Both the position numbers and the translations under genes were made by a program. Source: Gammaproteobacteria bacterium (GTDB lineage Bacteria; Pseudomonadota; Gammaproteobacteria; SZUA-152). From it: 64,000 nucleotides of DNA. Below are positions 2,289 through 64,000 of this stretch, in pieces (positions within the stretch are counted from its first letter, which is position 1; each line of letters starts with the position of its first letter). Under the pieces are notes generated by a model that worked only from the letters and a program-made list of their open reading frames with translations, made no database searches and was not told the DNA's origin. Location: NCBI GenBank assembly GCA_021647505.1, contig JAKIUN010000002.1:54158-118157 (forward strand), written 5' to 3'.

Positions 2289-3242
2289 TCAGGCCTCCCA
2301 CAGGGCGCGAATAGCCGCAATCCCCTGGCCACTCTGTAACCAGGCGGCCTCGCGGTCGTCCGGGGTCATGCCACCCAGGGCATAGACCGGAAACGGCGCC
2401 GGCTCCACCAGTTCCTCGAAACGTTCCCAGCCCAGTGGCTCGATATCCGGGTGACTGGTGGTCGCCGCCACCGGCGATAGCAGGGCGAAATCGGCACCGA
2501 TGGCGGCAGCTCGGGCCAGCTCATCGGCATCATGACAGGAGGCCGCCACCAGCCCCGCACCTGCGGCCAATGGCCGGGCCTTACACTTGCGCAAGGCACC
2601 ACTACTGAGATGCACGCCATCGGCCCCGGCCGCCGCCACCTGTACGGCATCGGCATTGAGCAGCAGGCGCGCCCCATGACGATGACACAGAGCCGCCGTC
2701 TCGCGCGCCAGCTGCAAGTACTCACTCTCACCCAGCGACTTGGCACGCAACTGCACCAAGCGAATACCGCCCCTCAGACGCAATTCCAGGTGATGCAAAA
2801 AATCCGCCGGCGACATACCGCCGAGATCGGGGGTGATCAGGTAGACATCAGGTAACTGCACGGCACGCACGATGGGTAGATTGGCGGCAGGGAACTCAAC
2901 ATCGTCCAGCGCCACAGGTGACACCCACCGCAGTGGCTGGCCCTCGCGGCCATGCGCCTCCCCCTCGAAGCTATCCACACGCCACACGTCCAGCAACACA
3001 GACTTGTCTGGGTAGTCATGGCGCACGCGGATCAGTGGCCGCGCTGCCGTGATGTGAATACCGACTTCCTCGTCCAGCTCACGCTGCAACGCGCGGCGTG
3101 CATCCTCGCCAGCTTCCAGCTTACCACCTGGAAATTCCCACATCCCCCCCTGGTGGGTATCATCGGCACGGCGGCTAATCAACACCCGGCCCTCGCCGTC
3201 GAACACCGCCGCTGCGGCCACTCTCACCACCGATTCACTCAT
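2289..3242 (-). CDS. mutT: Nudix (MutT-like) hydrolase fused to thiamine-phosphate-synthase-like (ThiE/TenI) domain
   Basis: N-terminal Nudix box (GGKLEAGEDARRALQRELDEEVGI); C-terminal TMP-synthase-like domain; lies downstream of secA as mutT does in E. coli and Pseudomonas. Confidence 0.75.
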   Translation of the reverse strand: MSESVVRVAAAAVFDGEGRVLISRRADDTHQGGMWEFPGGKLEAGEDARRALQRELDEEVGIHITAARPLIRVRHDYPDKSVLLDVWRVDSFEGEAHGREGQPLRWVSPVALDDVEFPAANLPIVRAVQLPDVYLITPDLGGMSPADFLHHLELRLRGGIRLVQLRAKSLGESEYLQLARETAALCHRHGARLLLNADAVQVAAAGADGVHLSSGALRKCKARPLAAGAGLVAASCHDADELARAAAIGADFALLSPVAATTSHPDIEPLGWERFEELVEPAPFPVYALGGMTPDDREAAWLQSGQGIAAIRALWEA

Positions 3243-3260
3243 GTGTCTTTGCCTCCAACC

Positions 3261-4478
3261 TCAAGTCCTGTATTCAGCATTGATGCGCACATAGTCATAA
3301 GACAGGTCACAGGTCCACACCTGCTCGCAGGCCTCGCCGCGACCCAGCACCACGCAAACATTGATCTCATCACGATCCATCACTGCCTGCCCGGCCTCTT
3401 CGGTGTATTCGGACGCTCGGCCACCGTCACGGACGATACACACGTCGTCGAGAAACAGCTGCACGGCGTCGATATCCAGACCCTCCAGGCCGGCACGACC
3501 GACCACGGCAAGAATGCGCCCCCAGTTGGGGTCAGCCGCGAAAAAGGCTGTTTTCACTAACGGTGAATGGGCGATGGCGTAGGCCACTTGCAGACATTCT
3601 TCACGGCTGCTCCCACCTTGCACGTCGATGGTAATAAGCTTAGTGGCGCCTTCGCCGTCACGCACGATGGCCCGCGCCAGTGACTCACAAACCCCACTCA
3701 CCGCCGCGCACAGCGCTTCAAAGGCCGAACCGTCGGCCTGCTCGACACGCAACGCCGCCCCGCCGGTGGCCATCAGCAGACAGGAATCATTGGTGGAAGT
3801 ATCGCCATCCACAGTAATGCGGTTGAAGGAGCGCGCCACGGCTCGTTCGAGACAGGCCTGCAACACCGGCTGCTCGACCTGCGCGTCGGTGGCGATATAG
3901 GCCAGCAGGGTGGCCATATCGGGACGGATCATGCCTGAGCCTTTGGCAATGCCGGTGACGGTCACCAGTACGCCGTCGATATTCACCTGCATCGAAGCCC
4001 CCTTGGGCACGGTGTCGGTGGTCAAAATGCCGTGCGCCGCATCAGCCCAGCCGTCATCGCCGAGAGCCGCCAGCAGGGCGGGCACGACGGTGGTGATTTT
4101 TTCCGCGGGCAAGGGCTCACCGATGACGCCGGTGGAAAAGGGCAATACGGCCGTCGCCGCACAGCCCGCCGCCTGCGCCACCGCCTCACAGCAGGCCAGA
4201 CCATCACGCATGCCCTGTTCACCAGTACCGGCATTGGCATTGCCAGTATTGGTGAGCAGATAACGTGGCGCAGTCTGCGACAGGTGCGCACGACAGATGT
4301 GCACCGGCGCGGCGCGGAAGGCATTGTGGGTAAACACTGCCGCCACCTGTGTACCTTCATCCAGCGCCATCAGCACCACGTCACGGCGCCCTTCCTGCTT
4401 GATACCGGCACAGGTGGCCGCCAGACGCAGCCCGGGCACAGCGTGCATAACTGGAAGTGGTTGCTTTTTAATGCTCAT
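3261..4478 (-). CDS. argJ: bifunctional ornithine acetyltransferase / N-acetylglutamate synthase ArgJ
   Basis: ArgJ family similarity throughout (ATML..I.TD..V..P, autocleavage region ...TLLAYIATDA). Start placed at internal ATG (MSIKKQ) because the upstream ORF extension is non-homologous. Confidence 0.85.
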   Translation of the reverse strand: MSIKKQPLPVMHAVPGLRLAATCAGIKQEGRRDVVLMALDEGTQVAAVFTHNAFRAAPVHICRAHLSQTAPRYLLTNTGNANAGTGEQGMRDGLACCEAVAQAAGCAATAVLPFSTGVIGEPLPAEKITTVVPALLAALGDDGWADAAHGILTTDTVPKGASMQVNIDGVLVTVTGIAKGSGMIRPDMATLLAYIATDAQVEQPVLQACLERAVARSFNRITVDGDTSTNDSCLLMATGGAALRVEQADGSAFEALCAAVSGVCESLARAIVRDGEGATKLITIDVQGGSSREECLQVAYAIAHSPLVKTAFFAADPNWGRILAVVGRAGLEGLDIDAVQLFLDDVCIVRDGGRASEYTEEAGQAVMDRDEINVCVVLGRGEACEQVWTCDLSYDYVRINAEYRT

Positions 4479-4721
4479 GATGTTCTCGGCTCTGGCAATA
4501 AAAAATGGGAACAAAAAACAGCCTACGGATGTTAGCGGCAACCCTACCCACGGCACAAGCCAGCCACTCACACAGCTCAACAACCACCTGCTAACGCGGG
4601 AGGTCAGCCTGGGTGAGCAGGCTTTCCATGCCCACGAGAAATGTGAATCAACCGCGTGAGCACACAAAACGAGCCCATCACCCTACCAGCGAGAGTTTTG
4701 CAAGAGGCTCGCGGGGCTAAT

Positions 4722-58681: not shown

Positions 58682-59938
58682 TCAGGGCTCGAAGCGAATC
58701 ACGTCGCCAGGCGCCAGGCGGGCAATGTCCTCGGCCAACTCTCCCACCGAGAACAGACGTTGTACCTGCGTCACAATCAAGTTCGTGGCCGGATTTTCCG
58801 CATAGCCCAGCGCGCGCTGGCCCGGGTAATCCTTTACCGGCACTTCGCTGAGCTTGTAGGTATTCAGCACGTCACCCACACGGATGTCGGCCAATCCACC
58901 GGCATCGAAATAGACCTTGTTGCCTTCGGCGCGGATCACTCGTGCAGTAAAGGGCTGTGAACCGACATCACTGACGATCAGTGCCACCATTCTGTCCAAC
59001 ATCTGATCCACTTCCCGGCCGAAAGGCGAAGCGAAGAATTTTTCACTCATCATCACAGTATTAGCGGGATGCAATACCGTCAAAAAACGCTCTTCCACCG
59101 TTTCACTGACCCTGTGCCGTGCCACCAAGGCTCCAGAAATACCGTCATGAATAAACAAGTCCAGTTCCAAATGACGCATTTTGGTGCCGAGAAAATGATT
59201 GCTCACACTCATGTCGCGAATCACCCCTGTGATGACGAACTGCACACCCAGGGATTCGGCGAACTCCGAAGCCACCTGATGCGGCTCACGCGCCGGCGGC
59301 AGAGCACCGAGAATGCGCCGCTGGGAAATGACGCCCTCTTCGCTCAGCGGCAGTAAGTATTGACTGGCGTTCACTGTCAGCACTCGGCCATCACTGATCA
59401 GGCGTCGTTCCAGTTCGCGCGCCAGTTCCGTTTCGATCTTCGGCAGGTCGTGAATCTGGGTTCGGTCGAGAACGTGGAACTGGCTCACGGCGACCTTGCG
59501 GCGGTAACGATTTGCCGCTTCGGCATTGCCATTCGCGTACCGGCTGGCCTGTCCGGTATCGCCAGCGCCACCCGGCTCCGCCTTCATTAGCGCCTGTAGC
59601 AGCGCATCATCTGGCACCTGGGCACGAATCTTCACATAATAATGATCTTCATCCGCCCATTCGCGGAGAATCACCACATGGGTCACGCGCCCCTGTGCGG
59701 AAAAACGCATATTGTCCGCCACCACACCGTTACGGGTCGTCACCGTGGTGATGGAGATGCGTGCATTGGCCTGCATCAGTGCCTGGCGAATAGCATCCTG
59801 CAGGGCCATACGCTTGGCCTGCGCCGTCGAGTCGCCGATGCGCGCCGCGCCCTCGGCCTCTACGGTCTGCGCCTGTGCCAGTCCGCCCGGCAGCGGCACA
59901 ATCAGCAATAACAGCAGGATTTTTAACAGCTTGGACAC
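58682..59938 (-). CDS. flgT: FlgT-like protein (flagellar H-ring assembly protein T family)
   Basis: Signal peptide; N-terminal domain resembles Vibrio FlgT (VEAEGAARIGDSTAQAKRMALQDAIRQALMQA vs YEATGQAVI.GD...AR..A.QDALRQAS.QA); adjacent to motY; GTG start. Confidence 0.5.
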   Translation of the reverse strand: MSKLLKILLLLLIVPLPGGLAQAQTVEAEGAARIGDSTAQAKRMALQDAIRQALMQANARISITTVTTRNGVVADNMRFSAQGRVTHVVILREWADEDHYYVKIRAQVPDDALLQALMKAEPGGAGDTGQASRYANGNAEAANRYRRKVAVSQFHVLDRTQIHDLPKIETELARELERRLISDGRVLTVNASQYLLPLSEEGVISQRRILGALPPAREPHQVASEFAESLGVQFVITGVIRDMSVSNHFLGTKMRHLELDLFIHDGISGALVARHRVSETVEERFLTVLHPANTVMMSEKFFASPFGREVDQMLDRMVALIVSDVGSQPFTARVIRAEGNKVYFDAGGLADIRVGDVLNTYKLSEVPVKDYPGQRALGYAENPATNLIVTQVQRLFSVGELAEDIARLAPGDVIRFEP

Positions 59939-60039
59939 AACATTCCCTCCATCGCCACCCGGGTGGCGCTCACGTCACACCCACAGCGGCAAACATCCCA
60001 ACATTCTTGAAGTCTGACGGCTTCTTAAAAAGTCTCTAA

Positions 60040-60211
60040 TTTTGTGGGGAGTCGTCAGCCACAGGCGCCATAACACGTTAAAGCCATGTAGGGTGGGCAC
60101 GTTTTTTGTGCCCACGCGGTTGGCACATATTCCACGTGGGCATGAAAAGCCTGCCCACCCTGCCAGGTTTTTGTGGGGAGCCGTCAGCCACAGGCGCCAT
60201 AACACGTTAAA
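60040..60211. repeat. full copy of REP/MITE-like double-hairpin element bracketed by 43-bp direct repeats
   Basis: ttttgtggggagtcgtcagccacaggcgccataacacgttaaag (60040-60083) + core (98% identical to the 55993-56095 copy) + tttgtggggagccgtcagccacaggcgccataacacgttaaag (60169-60211). Confidence 0.8.
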
Positions 60212-60244
60212 GAATGCAGATCCCGTGCCGACATTTTCTGCATC

Positions 60245-61228
60245 ATGGCGTACAGATGCAGCACAGCCGCCTGTCGGTGCAAAAAAGCGGCCCTCGGCCT
60301 GGTACTGCTGCTGTTATGCCCCCCACCCCTGCTGGCCAACACCCAGCATTTCCAGGCACCGCTCAATGCGGTGAAATGGGAGCCCTCCGCGAGACAAAAG
60401 TCCTCAGCTGGGCAAGAGCCCTCAGCGAGACAGGAGCCCCCCACAGAAAACCTGTACTGCAGCCTCAGCCACGACATCCCCCTTTACGGACGCGCCACCT
60501 TTGCCAAATCCGCAGGCCATGAACTGGGTTTCCGTATGACGACGAAATGGAATATCGGACTCAATGCCAAGCGCGCCCGGCTGCGCGCCATGCCGCCGGA
60601 ATGGCGCCCGCAGGCGACGGGCCAAAACCTGGGAGATATTCGCATACAGCCAGGCAATACACCCTTCCGGCTGGATGAATCCCTGACACGGCGGCTGTTG
60701 ATGGCATTGCAAAACGGCATGGAGGTCTCTTTCACCTACCCTGTCGAGCTTGATGGGCAGGATCACATCAAGGTCTCTTTGCCGGGGGTCAGTTTTCGTC
60801 CGGCGATGGATGTATTTGCTTCCTGCCTGAGCCGGTTGCCGGTATACGACTTTGCCGATTTCAGCGATACCGTGGTGCACTTTGCCGCCGGCACCGATGG
60901 ACTCAGTCCCAAAATCCACAAGCAACTGGATGCTATTGCCAAATACCTGGCCACTGACCCGACAGTGAAAAAAATCATCATCGAGGGCCACACGGATGAC
61001 ATCGGCCAATACCGCGCCAACGATAAGCTGGGACAGCGTCGCAGCTCAGCAATTCGCGACTACCTGTTAGCTATGGGTGTACCAACCGGCAAATTCGAGC
61101 TGCGCTCCTTGGGTGAACGCAGGCCCATCTATACCAACACCACGGATGAAGGCCGAGCCCGTAACCGGCGGGCCCGTATCACCCTAGAACGCAGCAGTGA
61201 CGAGGCAATGCACGTCCACAGTCACTGA
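60245..61228 (+). CDS. motY: sodium-type flagellar motor T-ring protein MotY (OmpA-like C-terminal domain)
   Basis: N-terminal domain matches MotY (F.APL...W...S...CSLSHDIPLYGRATF vs Vibrio Y.ASLDQSHW.L..S.LECTLRHDIPGYG.A.F); C-terminal OmpA/PG-binding motif (IEGHTDDIG..AND.LGQRRS.A…R..NRRA). Confidence 0.65.
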   Translation: MAYRCSTAACRCKKAALGLVLLLLCPPPLLANTQHFQAPLNAVKWEPSARQKSSAGQEPSARQEPPTENLYCSLSHDIPLYGRATFAKSAGHELGFRMTTKWNIGLNAKRARLRAMPPEWRPQATGQNLGDIRIQPGNTPFRLDESLTRRLLMALQNGMEVSFTYPVELDGQDHIKVSLPGVSFRPAMDVFASCLSRLPVYDFADFSDTVVHFAAGTDGLSPKIHKQLDAIAKYLATDPTVKKIIIEGHTDDIGQYRANDKLGQRRSSAIRDYLLAMGVPTGKFELRSLGERRPIYTNTTDEGRARNRRARITLERSSDEAMHVHSH

Positions 61229-61250
61229 CGCGACGAATCGAACGGATACG

Positions 61251-61283
61251 AAAAAGGCCGGGATCAACCGGCCTTGTATATTT
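61251..61283. terminator. bidirectional rho-independent terminator
   Basis: aaaaa-GGCCGG-gatcaa-CCGGCC-ttgtatattt between convergent motY and the SecB-like gene. Confidence 0.6.
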
Positions 61284-61311
61284 CGCGAGAAACGCGGGAA
61301 CACAATAATTT

Positions 61312-61824
61312 TTACACTTCGCCGTCAGCCTCACTCATTTCATCTCTTGGAGGAATGATGTACACAGGCACTTCGAAAGCAGGTGAAAACCCTATCCTTG
61401 CACAAGTAGACTGCACATACTCGCGCCAATACGGCCATACATGATAGCCTACATTATCAGCAGAGAATGCCTTAAGCTCTTCTTCTTTTAACTGACTCTT
61501 AGATAAATATTTAGCTTCAAAGACACCAACGATTTCCAATATCGGTTTGTATTCATCATTGACACTCTCTTCTTTCTCATTCAAAAAGATTAGACGAATA
61601 CCAACGGAGTAAGTAAAACGGTAATCCCAAACATTCTCTCCGCCCTCAGGATCTGTCAATGAAATTTCTTTTATCCTGACAAACGATCTGAAACTCTGTG
61701 CAGCTGTTTCATCTCTATCTAAAGTTGAGGGGTCTATATCATCCCTAACAAATATTTTGCTCTCTTTCAGATTTACCGATTGAATACAAAGATTGTTTTG
61801 AGCTATGTTCAAACAACTATTCAT
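61312..61824 (-). CDS. SecB-like chaperone (third gene of a toxin-antitoxin-chaperone module)
   Basis: 170 aa, low GC; C-terminal region NVGYHVWPYWREYVQSTCARIGFSPAFEVPVYI matches the SecB signature (…YPY.REYV.....R....P..L) including the M. tuberculosis SecB-like TAC chaperone. Confidence 0.55.
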   Translation of the reverse strand: MNSCLNIAQNNLCIQSVNLKESKIFVRDDIDPSTLDRDETAAQSFRSFVRIKEISLTDPEGGENVWDYRFTYSVGIRLIFLNEKEESVNDEYKPILEIVGVFEAKYLSKSQLKEEELKAFSADNVGYHVWPYWREYVQSTCARIGFSPAFEVPVYIIPPRDEMSEADGEV

Positions 61825-61826
61825 AA

Positions 61827-62255
61827 TTAAGCGGCCTGATTCTCCCAGGCCTTAAAATCACGGTAGTCAAATACATTCTCAGACTTACGGATCAATTCGT
61901 CTGTCCTCAGATCAACCTTCTCCGTTACCCAAGAAATTTTACCCGTAGCTTCCAGACTCTCCAGCACGGACTCAACTTGAATAGTAATTTTTGGCTTTAC
62001 ATCCAAGGCAAAACAAATATCAGAGAGAGTTCCTAGAGTCATATTACGAGCACCACCCAAGATTTGAGTGACATAAGAACGAGATTTCCCCAGACGTCGT
62101 GCAAGCTCTTTCTTGTTAACATTCAAATCTTCGAGAGTGACTAAAATATCTTCAGTCACGTTATACACAAGTTCTTCTCGTGCATACACTCTTTCATCTG
62201 CTCTGCTGAACTCTTTATTTTCAGAGAAAAATAAGTTTTTAGCGCTCATCTCCAT
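61827..62255 (-). CDS. XRE-family HTH antitoxin with C-terminal extension (candidate chaperone-addiction region)
   Basis: HTH (LNVNKKELARRLGKSRSYVTQILGGARNMTLGTLSDICFAL) followed by ~60-aa tail; overlaps upstream toxin gene; start chosen at MEMSAKNL (ORF-tool start at 62300 also possible). Confidence 0.55.
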   Translation of the reverse strand: MEMSAKNLFFSENKEFSRADERVYAREELVYNVTEDILVTLEDLNVNKKELARRLGKSRSYVTQILGGARNMTLGTLSDICFALDVKPKITIQVESVLESLEATGKISWVTEKVDLRTDELIRKSENVFDYRDFKAWENQAA

Positions 62256-62658
62256 TCTCCTCGATTCTTCGCCAATTAGCCCCAACCTTGTGCGTATCAC
62301 GTTCTCTCAGATTATCATAATCCTTATAGACATAATGACTGATAAAATACGTATTCTTATACCTCTCCGACAACCAACAATAACCTCGAACAGGTATTCG
62401 TTTCAGGACGTTAAACTTCTTAGCTTTCTGCTGCCCTTTCCTTTTAGGCAGATCACCTTCTTGCGGAAAATTTTCCCTGGACATTCTCTGCCCATCAGAA
62501 AGCCTTTCTATCTGCTGAATGATTCCGCGCGTAAACGACTCACGCCTCCTGGCATCGACTCTATTCAGAGTCTCGCTATAACTTTTCAGTGCTCCCTCAC
62601 AGTGTATGACCGTAAATTTAGACCCGTTGTAGCTGTCCTTGGGTTTGTCGTTTTTCAC
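62239..62658 (-). CDS. putative HigB/Gp49-like (RelE superfamily) toxin
   Basis: Basic 139-aa protein, C-terminal half …KFNVLKRIPVRGYCWLSERYKNTYFISHYVYKDYDNL resembles HigB/Gp49-like toxins; GTG start; first gene of operon with HTH gene. Confidence 0.45.
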   Translation of the reverse strand: MKNDKPKDSYNGSKFTVIHCEGALKSYSETLNRVDARRRESFTRGIIQQIERLSDGQRMSRENFPQEGDLPKRKGQQKAKKFNVLKRIPVRGYCWLSERYKNTYFISHYVYKDYDNLRERDTHKVGANWRRIEENGDER

Positions 62659-62674
62659 TTCGAAACCGAACTAT

Positions 62675-62694
62675 AGTTAATATATATGTTAACT
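62675..62694. promoter_or_regulatory. 20-bp palindrome agttaatatatatgttaact upstream of the toxin gene (candidate antitoxin operator)
   Basis: 19/20 self-complementary, centred 27 bp upstream of the toxin start in an AT-rich promoter region. Confidence 0.45.
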
Positions 62695-62839
62695 GCAATA
62701 TTTTTTCAAATAAATTCGGATGGAATATAGCCATAAAACTATTGCAGCCTTCAAAATATAACTTATTATTCAATGAGTTATATTTTGTCACGAGCGATTA
62801 AATCAAATAACTTTACAGATATATCCCTATAGCTGACTC

Positions 62840-63331
62840 CTAGAACGGAATATCGTCGTCAAAACCACCATCGTCGAAACTACCACTGGACTGGCCGGAA
62901 GACTGACTCTGCCCCTGACTCGGGTTCTGGCCCTGACTCTGGCTTTGCCCCTGGTTTTGCTGCTCCCCGCCAAACTGATTACCACCACCGCCGCCACGAG
63001 CATCCAACATCTGCATCTCATTGGCGATAATCTCGGTGGTATAGCGGTCGTTGCCGCTCTGATCCTGCCATTTTCGGGTCTGTAGCCGGCCCTCGATGTA
63101 GACCTTGGAGCCCTTTTTCAGGTATTCACCGGCGATCTCCGCCAGACGGCGAAAAAACACCACGCGATGCCATTCAGTGCGCTCCTGCATCTCACCGGTA
63201 TTCTTGTCCTTCCAGCTATCGCTGGTGGCCACCGTAACATTGGCCACTGCGCCGCCATTGGGCATGTATTTTACGTCGGGATCCTGACCCAGATTGCCGA
63301 TCAGGATAACCTTGTTGATACCTCGTGCCAT
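62840..63331 (-). CDS. ssb: single-stranded DNA-binding protein
   Basis: OB-fold N-terminus ([43 protein letters not shown]), Gly/Gln-rich linker, acidic tail DDDIPF. Confidence 0.95.
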
Positions 63332-63389
63332 TGTTCTCTCCTAATCTGAGTTCATTGTAATCGATATTAATCTGCCGCCACCGACTTGC

Positions 63390-64000
63390 TCACGGCTTTT
63401 CTTCGCCCTCTGCAACGGGCTCATCTTTTTCCGCAAAGGCCCGCAGGGCTTCCCGATCCAGCGCACGCAGATCCACCTTCAGATAGGCAATGCCATCCTC
63501 GGCAAGCACCACCGCCTCGGCAACACCGGTAACCTTGGTGAACTCCCCCACCAGATGGCGTGCCTGCTCTTCGTCGATCTTGCCCACCCGAACCAGGTGA
63601 CTACTGAGATAGCGCGGGCTCTGCATGGTGGCGGCGACACAGAACCACACCACCGCCACGGCGACACAGAAACCGAATACTGCCTCAAAACCACCGATGC
63701 TGTACAACCAACCGCCCAGCACACCGCCAAAAAAGGCGCCCATAAACTGCGAGCTGGAGTAAACACCCATCGCGGTACCCTTGTTGTTGGGCGACACCAT
63801 CTTGGCGATCAATGACGGCAGGGTGGCCTCCAGGGCATTAAAGGCGGTGAAAAAGACAAATAGGCCGATGACGATGCCATACAAGGAATCATGGAAGGTC
63901 ATGAAGATCACTTCGGCCAGCGCCAGTGCTAATACACAGGCGGTAAAAATGGGTTTTATGCGGCGCTTCTTCTCCGCGATAATCACAAAGGGAATCATCA
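63390..64000 (-). CDS. MFS transporter (C-terminal part; N-terminus beyond window end)
   Basis: Polytopic membrane protein with MFS TM7-12-like segments; ORF open to window edge; MFS-ssb adjacency as in Pseudomonas. Confidence 0.75.
   Translation of the reverse strand, partial: MIPFVIIAEKKRRIKPIFTACVLALALAEVIFMTFHDSLYGIVIGLFVFFTAFNALEATLPSLIAKMVSPNNKGTAMGVYSSSQFMGAFFGGVLGGWLYSIGGFEAVFGFCVAVAVVWFCVAATMQSPRYLSSHLVRVGKIDEEQARHLVGEFTKVTGVAEAVVLAEDGIAYLKVDLRALDREALRAFAEKDEPVAEGEEKP

Follow-up and report, generated by a model that had tools for sequence, protein, structure and literature searches.

A probable toxin-antitoxin-chaperone cassette of the HigB/HigA/SecB-TA type between a motY-like gene and ssb in a gammaproteobacterium

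What are the three small, GC-poor genes that lie between a motY-like gene and ssb in a gammaproteobacterial genome, and do they belong to one system? The question arises in a stretch of 64,000 nucleotides (nt) of contig JAKIUN010000002.1 (positions 54,158 to 118,157), hereafter the window, to which all positions refer unless another locus is named. An earlier note on this DNA took the genes for a tripartite toxin-antitoxin-chaperone (TAC) module, in which a dedicated relative of the export chaperone SecB (SecB-TA) guards the antitoxin. In our assessment the locus is probably a tripartite type II TAC cassette of the HigB(Gp49-like)/HigA(XRE)/SecB-TA type. This reading is supported by sequence profiles and predicted structure (fold), and not by curated hidden Markov models (HMMs).

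TACs have been known since 2011. They were defined in Mycobacterium tuberculosis, and functional examples come from Vibrio cholerae (MqsRA), Methylomonas methanica (HicAB) and Geobacter lovleyi (HigBA) (PMC5105189). An association with toxin-antitoxin systems is found for about 7% of SecB homologues (PMC6377645). In Escherichia coli, MqsRAC, CmdTAC and HigBAC defend against phages, and the HigBAC chaperone senses the lambda tail protein gpV (bioRxiv 10.1101/2024.02.24.581848). The view that TACs are rare or unevenly described outside the actinobacteria, which the earlier note expressed, does not agree with these published examples from V. cholerae, Methylomonas, Geobacter and E. coli (PMC5105189; bioRxiv 10.1101/2024.02.24.581848).

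Results

Three genes in one compact unit

The module consists of three open reading frames (ORFs), here named for their candidate roles, with isoelectric points (pI) calculated from the translations:

62239-62658, minus strand: toxin gene ORF1 (139 aa, GTG start, no Shine-Dalgarno sequence, pI 9.77)
61827-62249, minus strand: antitoxin gene ORF2 (140 aa from MSAKN, pI 5.18)
61312-61824, minus strand: SecB-like (SecB-TA) chaperone gene ORF3 (170 aa, pI 4.56)

The tight packing between motY and ssb that had been read from the sequence is confirmed by these coordinates, with ORF1 and ORF2 overlapping by 11 nt and the ORF2 stop codon lying 2 nt from the start of ORF3. The mechanically called frame of ORF2 is longer (157 aa) and begins further upstream; the MSAKN start has a strong Shine-Dalgarno sequence (GAGGAG) 7 nt upstream of it, and a database protein of 140 aa (P0241) is 100% identical to ORF2 as delimited here. 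Through P0241 and P0001 the window matches a Gammaproteobacteria MAG (metagenome-assembled genome). The much lower GC content of the module is equally real, at 0.41 against 0.56-0.57 in the flanks.

Look-ups of toxin or chaperone relatives led to at least ten genomic contexts, and the three-gene order is the same in all of them. Each context holds homologues of all three window proteins, down to 28-42% identity.

A SecB-like chaperone nearest to Rv1957

The SecB identity proposed for the 170-aa product of ORF3 fails by HMM and stands by motif and fold. The Pfam SecB model (PF02556) aligns with residues 107-148 only (E=0.2), scoring 12 bits against a gathering threshold of 26 bits. It matches 5 of 35 relatives of ORF3, at best with E=0.032, and scans of ORF3 with NCBIfam and PADLOC returned nothing at threshold. 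The signature that had been noticed near the C-terminus, WPYWREYVQSTCARIGFSP, is present at residues 130-148. A search of PDB sequences with ORF3 puts 5mtw_C first, a chain of the M. tuberculosis TAC chaperone Rv1957 (E=0.07), and a profile of the 35 relatives finds this chain with E=5.5e-4 over 79 positions.

The AlphaFold2 model of ORF3 (predicted local distance difference test, pLDDT, 89; predicted template modelling score, pTM, 0.81) has four long beta-strands and, after them, a long helix. When it was searched against the PDB with Foldseek, all 18 of the 18 best matches were SecB or Rv1957. Four Rv1957 chains head the ranking (best E=1.2e-7), and canonical SecB of E. coli and Haemophilus influenzae follows with E-values of 1.8e-6 to 1.8e-4. 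The most conserved stretch of the ORF3 family, VGYHVWPYWREYVQSTCAR, pairs with YPYIREYVYDLTGR of Rv1957 in the PDB sequence match; it pairs with FPYARECITSMVSR of E. coli SecB in an hhalign alignment that is short and weak. By its predicted structure, ORF3 has the SecB fold and is nearest to Rv1957.

A more ordinary interpretation would make ORF1 and ORF2 a two-component HigBA-like pair, with ORF3 as a SecB paralogue that serves export in general or as an unrelated passenger, in either case without control over the antitoxin. We give it little credence. Although ORF3 shares the SecB fold, and relatives of it are named 'preprotein translocase subunit SecB' in some databases, it has no Shine-Dalgarno sequence of its own where it begins just past the antitoxin stop, and it accompanies the toxin-antitoxin pair in all of the contexts examined. 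Housekeeping SecB does not fall so far below the Pfam threshold, and the best match of ORF3, by profile and by structure, is a dedicated TAC chaperone. The partner antitoxins also always carry an extra tail with conserved Trp residues and an -AA or -VA end.

An antitoxin with a two-tryptophan tail

ORF2 is an XRE-type helix-turn-helix (HTH) protein, as had been proposed, with matches to Pfam HTH_26 (E=3.8e-8) and HTH_3 (E=1.2e-5) that are both above their cut-offs. The NCBIfam HigA antidote model, an equivalog, reaches only 19 of the 47.7 bits that its cut-off demands. Ahead of the XRE/HTH_26 domain (aa ~46-88) stands a strongly conserved N-terminal segment (aa 1-45), and behind the domain comes the tail:

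61830-61985, minus strand: antitoxin tail, aa 89-140, a putative chaperone-addiction (ChAD) element with W107, W135 and an Ala-Ala end

The expected C-terminal tail is therefore present, with a length of 52 aa and not the ~60 that had been estimated. Its sequence is variable in the family alignment, in which W107 is nearly invariant and W135 is invariant. Among 117 ORF2 homologues of at least 125 aa, the two Trp residues are exactly 28 aa apart in 66 and 26-32 aa apart in most others. The same sample ends in Ala-Ala in 78 cases and in Val-Ala in 34, which makes 112 of 117 with an -AA or -VA C-terminus, and a final Ala after any residue is found in 114. No such C-terminal bias was seen in the toxin or chaperone homologues.

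ChAD elements have been described as C-terminal disordered regions whose aromatic residues, at steps of about 30 aa, fill pockets of the SecB-TA tetramer, and an aliphatic-Ala end, such as -VA of M. tuberculosis HigA1 or -AA of CmdA, acts as a ClpXP degron (bioRxiv 10.1101/2024.02.24.581848; PMC6377645). The conserved features of the ORF2 tail fit this description, and we regard it as a putative ChAD element that, by analogy, would make the antitoxin dependent on ORF3.

A toxin candidate of the RelE fold

The basic HigB/Gp49-like toxin that the first gene had been said to encode is borne out in its charge and its predicted fold, which is of the RelE/ParE type and nearest to Gp49-type HigB, and not in its HMM assignment. 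Neither Pfam (including Gp49, PF05973, and RelE), NCBIfam, PADLOC nor PDB sequences gave a match to ORF1. PF05973 was also absent from its 30 closer relatives in a Pfam scan, and family profiles (31 relatives, and a widened family) found only chance matches among PDB sequences.

The AlphaFold2 model of ORF1 (pLDDT 93.7) has a beta-beta-alpha-alpha arrangement, four beta-strands and a long C-terminal helix, and only RelE/ParE toxins stand at the top of its Foldseek list. Structural comparisons of the model gave the following values:

Streptococcus pneumoniae HigB: 12.4 (2.1 Å / 102)
M. tuberculosis HigB1, the TAC toxin: 12.0 (2.1 Å / 103)
V. cholerae HigB2: 8.7 (2.8 Å / 97)
Other RelE, YoeB, YafQ and ParE structures: 6-8

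The antiparallel beta-sheet of the model rests on two N-terminal helices, as in the RelE fold, and the long C-terminal helix is of the Gp49 type. The three named HigB proteins are Gp49-like toxins with such a helix (PMC9098466).

In sequence the family is small and distant from others. An exhaustive profile search of 1.84 billion representatives (50% identity clusters) returned only 141 clusters at E<=1e-3. Among 58 distant full-length relatives of ORF1, Pfam Gp49 has sub-threshold matches in 10 (best E=6.7e-4), and no other Pfam family recurs. Across these 58 sequences, the most distant at 21% identity, Y93 and K112 never vary, and E67, R91, W95, S107, H108 and D121 are conserved in at least 90%. 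The conserved basic and acidic catalytic residues of HigB1 (E66, R68, R77 and K95) lie in the beta2-beta3 region and the beta4-alpha3 loop, and substitution of K95 abolishes toxicity (PMC9098466). K112 of ORF1 stands opposite K95 in a weak hhalign match (E=0.11) made with a HigB1 sequence that agrees with 12 of 12 residue numbers in the published account (PMC9098466). By its modelled fold ORF1 is a Gp49/HigB1-like toxin, and we do not assign it to PF05973.

ORF1 could alternatively poison gyrase as ParE does, or have the RelE fold without catalytic activity, in which case the module would act on DNA replication or only regulate. We consider this quite improbable, since the C-terminal helix is a Gp49-type feature, the conserved E67, R91, H108 and K112 fit the acid/base and phosphate-binding set of RelE-type toxins, and Gp49 is the sole Pfam family to recur among the distant relatives.

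Toxin genes of only 81-94 aa are annotated in some relatives (P0236, P0237, P0208, P0230 and P0232, for example in Nitrincola tapanii and an Alcanivorax MAG), and the chaperone is kept (P0079). They may be decayed toxins or have mis-called start codons.

A conserved palindrome over a putative promoter

Upstream of the toxin gene lie two overlapping elements:

62675-62694, no strand assigned: palindrome resembling an operator, 17 nt before the GTG of the toxin gene; its minus-strand reading is AGTTAACATA/TATATTAACT
62670-62709, minus strand: putative sigma-70 promoter, overlapping the palindrome; read by eye, in a block conserved in relatives

The palindrome is AGTTAATATA/TATGTTAACT, with 9 of 10 positions complementary, and occupies -36 to -16 from the GTG start. 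An identical 20-mer at the same distance is found in three other cassettes (L005, L007 and L008). Near-identical palindromes occur in Nitrosococcus halophilus (L001), Pseudoalteromonas spongiae (L009) and Alcanivorax (L011), where the toxins are 42-66% identical to ORF1 and the DNA around the palindrome cannot be aligned. The persistence of the same 20-mer where the neighbouring DNA has diverged indicates that the palindrome is not due to chance. In L002, the most distant of the cassettes, the palindrome is another one and lies at -19 to -1. The palindrome suggested earlier is thus confirmed and conserved in relatives, and its role as an operator is putative.

The promoter can be read in two ways, as TTGAAA (62709-62704), 17 nt and TATATA (62686-62681), or as TTGCAG (62698-62693), 17 nt and TATAGT (62675-62670). 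A consensus promoter scan upstream of ORF1 made no call. The GTG start of the toxin gene without a Shine-Dalgarno sequence is kept in close relatives. At the antitoxin/chaperone junction, a terminator scan proposed a hairpin at 61833-61851, which we discarded as chance because it is not conserved in relatives.

An accessory cassette in varied genomic contexts

The unit that recurs elsewhere is slightly larger than the three genes:

61302-62720, minus strand: DNA homology with cassettes in unrelated contexts, comprising the promoter and the three genes (~1.42 kb)

These limits come from sliding identity against L005 and L007, which falls to background level outside them. Inspection of the cassette ends revealed neither terminal repeats nor a target-site duplication nor a recombinase gene. 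The surroundings of the cassette differ from host to host:

L001: near rpoD
L002-L004 (Competibacter-like contigs; 3191-4540): between HmaA (helicase) and HmaB (methylase) of an Hma defence system
L005, L006: adjoining recA-recX-cinA and insertion sequence (IS) fragments
L007: in the order uvrA, major facilitator superfamily (MFS) gene, ssb, cassette, lon
L009, L010: adjoining a TonB receptor gene
L011 (Alcanivorax genome; 5001-6323): between Wadjet JetD and a type I restriction-modification (R-M) gene (restriction enzyme)

In the window the cassette is flanked by a gene for a MotY-like protein of the OmpA family and by ssb, with an MFS transporter gene beyond ssb. When genomes were scanned for the MotY-like protein, sister MAGs (L013-L017) emerged in which the site is either occupied or empty. 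It is occupied by the cassette in L014, L015 and L016, with protein identities of 75-96%. In L013 and L017, motY is followed by one GC hairpin and then by the ssb stop codon; L013 is otherwise close to the window (MotY 85%, SSB 97% and MFS 95.5% identical). The cassette is an accessory insertion between the conserved genes motY and ssb, which bears out the earlier description of a module wedged between conserved chromosomal genes. It had also been called a recent acquisition. GC content is 7-17 points lower in the cassette than in the flanks of every host examined, which makes low GC a trait of the family that does not date the insertion; together with the presence of the cassette in three related MAGs, this leaves accessory status only.

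The same sites identify the owner of the downstream hairpin:

61254-61275, no strand assigned: GC-rich hairpin between an A-run and a T-run, with an 8-bp stem of which 6 pairs are GC; convergent motY/ssb terminator

The cassette of the window lies between this hairpin and ssb. The hairpin had been counted as a bidirectional terminator of the module. It exists, but the empty sites L013 and L017 have it too, in the gap that separates motY from the ssb stop codon, and thus it is the host's own terminator, which now also ends the cassette operon. A second hairpin (AAGCCCCT...AGGGGCTTTT) lies between ssb and the cassette in L014, L015 and the unrelated L007, and is missing from the window and the empty sites.

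That the three ORFs are a decaying remnant without current function is scarcely credible, for although some relatives have truncated toxin genes (81-94 aa) and the cassette is absent from the related genomes L013 and L017, in the window all three ORFs are full length, ORF1 has 24 of the 24 invariant residues of its family, the intact operator and promoter match those of relatives exactly, and the start/stop overlaps are preserved.

Identity between the window and L015 is uneven. Over the terminator and the chaperone gene it reaches 96-100%. The part that codes for the antitoxin tail has 84-94%, the HTH part of the antitoxin gene and the toxin gene have 74-88%, and the spacer on the ssb side has 40-60%. 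This mosaic points to recombination within the cassette, and suggests that it separates the chaperone from the toxin-antitoxin pair.

The cassette lies directly downstream of ssb in two unrelated lineages, the group of the window and L007. The stretches compared here are 4634-5000 of L007, the spacers between ssb and cassette in L014 and L015, and 62659-62839 of the window. The SSB of L007 is only 68% identical to that of the window, and its other flank is lon, not motY. The shared adjacency may reflect an ssb-anchored hotspot or co-transfer.

Some further features belong to the neighbourhood of the cassette. The flanking 'motY' gene (60245-61228), whose 5' end is uncertain, scores 140 bits with the NCBIfam MotY model against an equivalog cut-off of 400, and 'MotY-like OmpA-family protein' is the safer name given a score so far below the cut-off. 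The spacer upstream of it contains a 44-nt direct repeat (60040-60083 and 60169-60212, 98% identical) that encloses an inverted repeat, imperfect and with arms of 40 nt (60080-60119 and 60132-60171). The whole structure (60040-60212) looks like a REP- or MITE-like element, and a motif of the GTGGGCAC type is also present in the empty site of L017. An Rfam search of 59000-64000 gave no match.

Relatives on phages and plasmids

Beyond the cassette family, ORF3 is 29-36% identical to genes named 'preprotein translocase subunit SecB' on plasmids of Vibrio, Shewanella and Acinetobacter. On a Vibrio harveyi plasmid (L022, 1513-2941) and in the phage PhiR70_1 (L020, 1979-3501) the SecB-like gene follows an MqsA-family antitoxin, as it does in one Acinetobacter match. 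The chaperones of the V. harveyi plasmid and of PhiR70_1 are 32-36% identical to ORF3, and their partner toxins are unrelated to ORF1. In PhiR70_1, a lambdoid phage, the module lies between cI and kil, and the antitoxin ends in -VA. Given these MqsA-type partners in phage and plasmid, one chaperone clade is combined with different toxin-antitoxin pairs. No homologue of ORF1 was found in the plasmid collection.

The toxin and antitoxin also have relatives of their own in phages. In the lambdoid coliphages HK639 (L023, 3501-4718) and mEp237 (L024, 3489-4730), homologues of the toxin (45%) and the antitoxin (47%) come directly after cI. Their antitoxins do not end in -AA, and the third gene (132-137 aa) has no detectable similarity to SecB. 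The HK639 toxin gene is annotated too short, at 97 aa against 139 aa by homology. A pair consisting of an HTH protein and a 169-aa protein downstream in L005 proved unrelated to ORF2 and ORF3.

Discussion

The TAC architecture proposed for this locus holds in its main parts, namely the gene order, the RelE/ParE fold of ORF1, the SecB fold of ORF3, and the antitoxin tail with its Trp residues and Ala-Ala end. The folds, the operon anatomy, the conserved operator and tail features, the recurrence of a three-gene unit and its accessory status are direct results of the analysis. Several points weigh on the other side. No curated HMM from Pfam, NCBIfam or PADLOC reaches its threshold for ORF1 or ORF3, and the Foldseek E-values of ORF1 are weak (0.04-0.1). 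The correspondence of catalytic residues between ORF1 and HigB1 comes from an hhalign alignment of 18 columns at E=0.11, and some Gp49-like HigB proteins, such as HigB2 and HigB3 of M. tuberculosis, are non-toxic (PMC9098466). The cassette of the window lies outside any defence island, as do those of L001, L007 and L009.

One of the closest known systems is HigB1-HigA1-SecB-TA of M. tuberculosis (Rv1955-Rv1956-Rv1957). It has the same order of toxin, antitoxin and chaperone, and HigA1, like ORF2, joins an XRE-HTH domain to a C-terminal extension, which starts near residue 104-107. The first key residue of the tail is a Trp in both, W107 in ORF2 and W108 in HigA1, where it is the first buried ChAD residue (PMC6377645). 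Both antitoxins have an aliphatic-Ala C-terminus (-AA in ORF2, -VA in HigA1), and Rv1957 is the best PDB match of ORF3 by profile and by fold. However, identity to the M. tuberculosis proteins in structural alignments is very low (chaperone ~16%, toxin 7%), and ORF2 does not have the W-x-R-x3-Y ChAD motif. Unlike the mycobacterial TAC, the present cassette is low in GC and mobile and belongs to a marine or hydrothermal gammaproteobacterium.

Proteobacterial TACs of the HigBA type are E. coli HigBAC (NT1F31) and HigBA-SecB-TA of G. lovleyi, which we liken to the cassette by their published description. Their ChAD aromatics recur at steps of about 30 aa, compared with the 28 aa between the Trp residues of ORF2. 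HigBAC is prophage-borne and senses a phage tail protein, and relatives of the window cassette are found in defence islands and lambdoid phages. The ChAD of E. coli HigA has 96 aa and four aromatic motifs, and this antitoxin is not ClpXP-dependent, whereas the tail of ORF2 has 52 aa, two Trp residues and an -AA end. With TACs of the MqsRA type (V. cholerae RC385, and MqsRAC of E. coli C496_10) and the plasmid and phage relatives described above, the cassette shares a chaperone clade. The toxin-antitoxin pair of those systems is unrelated to ORF1 and ORF2, consisting of a zinc-ribbon antitoxin, MqsA, and a different toxin.

Canonical SecB of E. coli and H. influenzae has the same fold as ORF3 and carries the helix motif FPYARECITSMVSRGTFP where ORF3 has WPYWREYVQSTCARIGFSP, a comparison that comes from the short, weak hhalign alignment with E. 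coli SecB. ORF3 differs from it in scoring below the Pfam SecB threshold and in being encoded in a toxin-antitoxin operon on an accessory cassette. We would not expect ORF3 to have a role in SecA-dependent export.

How such a cassette might work can be proposed from the known TACs, by analogy with which we assign it toxicity, ribonuclease (RNase) activity, chaperone dependence and a trigger. In this scenario, a single promoter would serve all three genes and be repressed by an antitoxin dimer bound to the 20-nt palindrome that overlaps it. The toxin, poorly translated because of its GTG start without a Shine-Dalgarno sequence, would be a ribosome-dependent mRNA endonuclease, and the antitoxin may neutralize it through the conserved N-terminal segment. 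The 52-aa tail would render the antitoxin aggregation-prone or degradable, with the terminal Ala-Ala as a ClpXP degron, unless a tetramer of the SecB-like protein captured the tail through its conserved Trp residues. If the chaperone were titrated away, by stress-unfolded clients or, more probably, by a phage structural protein, the antitoxin would be lost, and the freed toxin would stop translation, resulting in abortive infection or growth arrest.

The contexts of several relatives relate to defence or to phages. The cassette lies inside an Hma system in the Competibacter-like contigs and between Wadjet and type I R-M genes in the Alcanivorax genome, and phage relatives stand next to cI in HK639, mEp237 and PhiR70_1. 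We suggest tentatively, as something possible rather than probable, that the family is an uncatalogued anti-phage TAC subtype in which the SecB-like protein is a phage sensor, and in which the chaperone and the toxin-antitoxin 'warhead' are exchanged by recombination. The suggestion is based on the mosaic identity of the window and L015, whose chaperone genes differ by less than 4% and whose toxin and antitoxin genes differ by 15-25%, on the occurrence of the chaperone clade with MqsA-type modules, and on the third gene of HK639 and mEp237, which is not recognisably SecB.

From the perspective of known TAC biology, the cassette, apart from its sequence divergence, is an ordinary example of a type of system that Proteobacteria are known to carry and whose role in phage defence has already been demonstrated. 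The concept of TACs as abortive-infection defence, with the chaperone as phage sensor, is established, and the locus adds a member, not a mechanism. It differs from the known TACs in a toxin and a chaperone divergent enough to escape curated models, and in a short tail that has two Trp residues and an -AA end. Neither the toxin nor the chaperone is caught by current HMM libraries, so that this family would escape annotation and defence-finder pipelines. It offers clean comparative data, including a conserved operator, a nearly universal -AA or -VA end, occupied and empty sites, and relatives in phages of E. coli. If the tentative subtype proposal is true, the family would be a natural series for studying sensor and effector swaps in TAC immunity.

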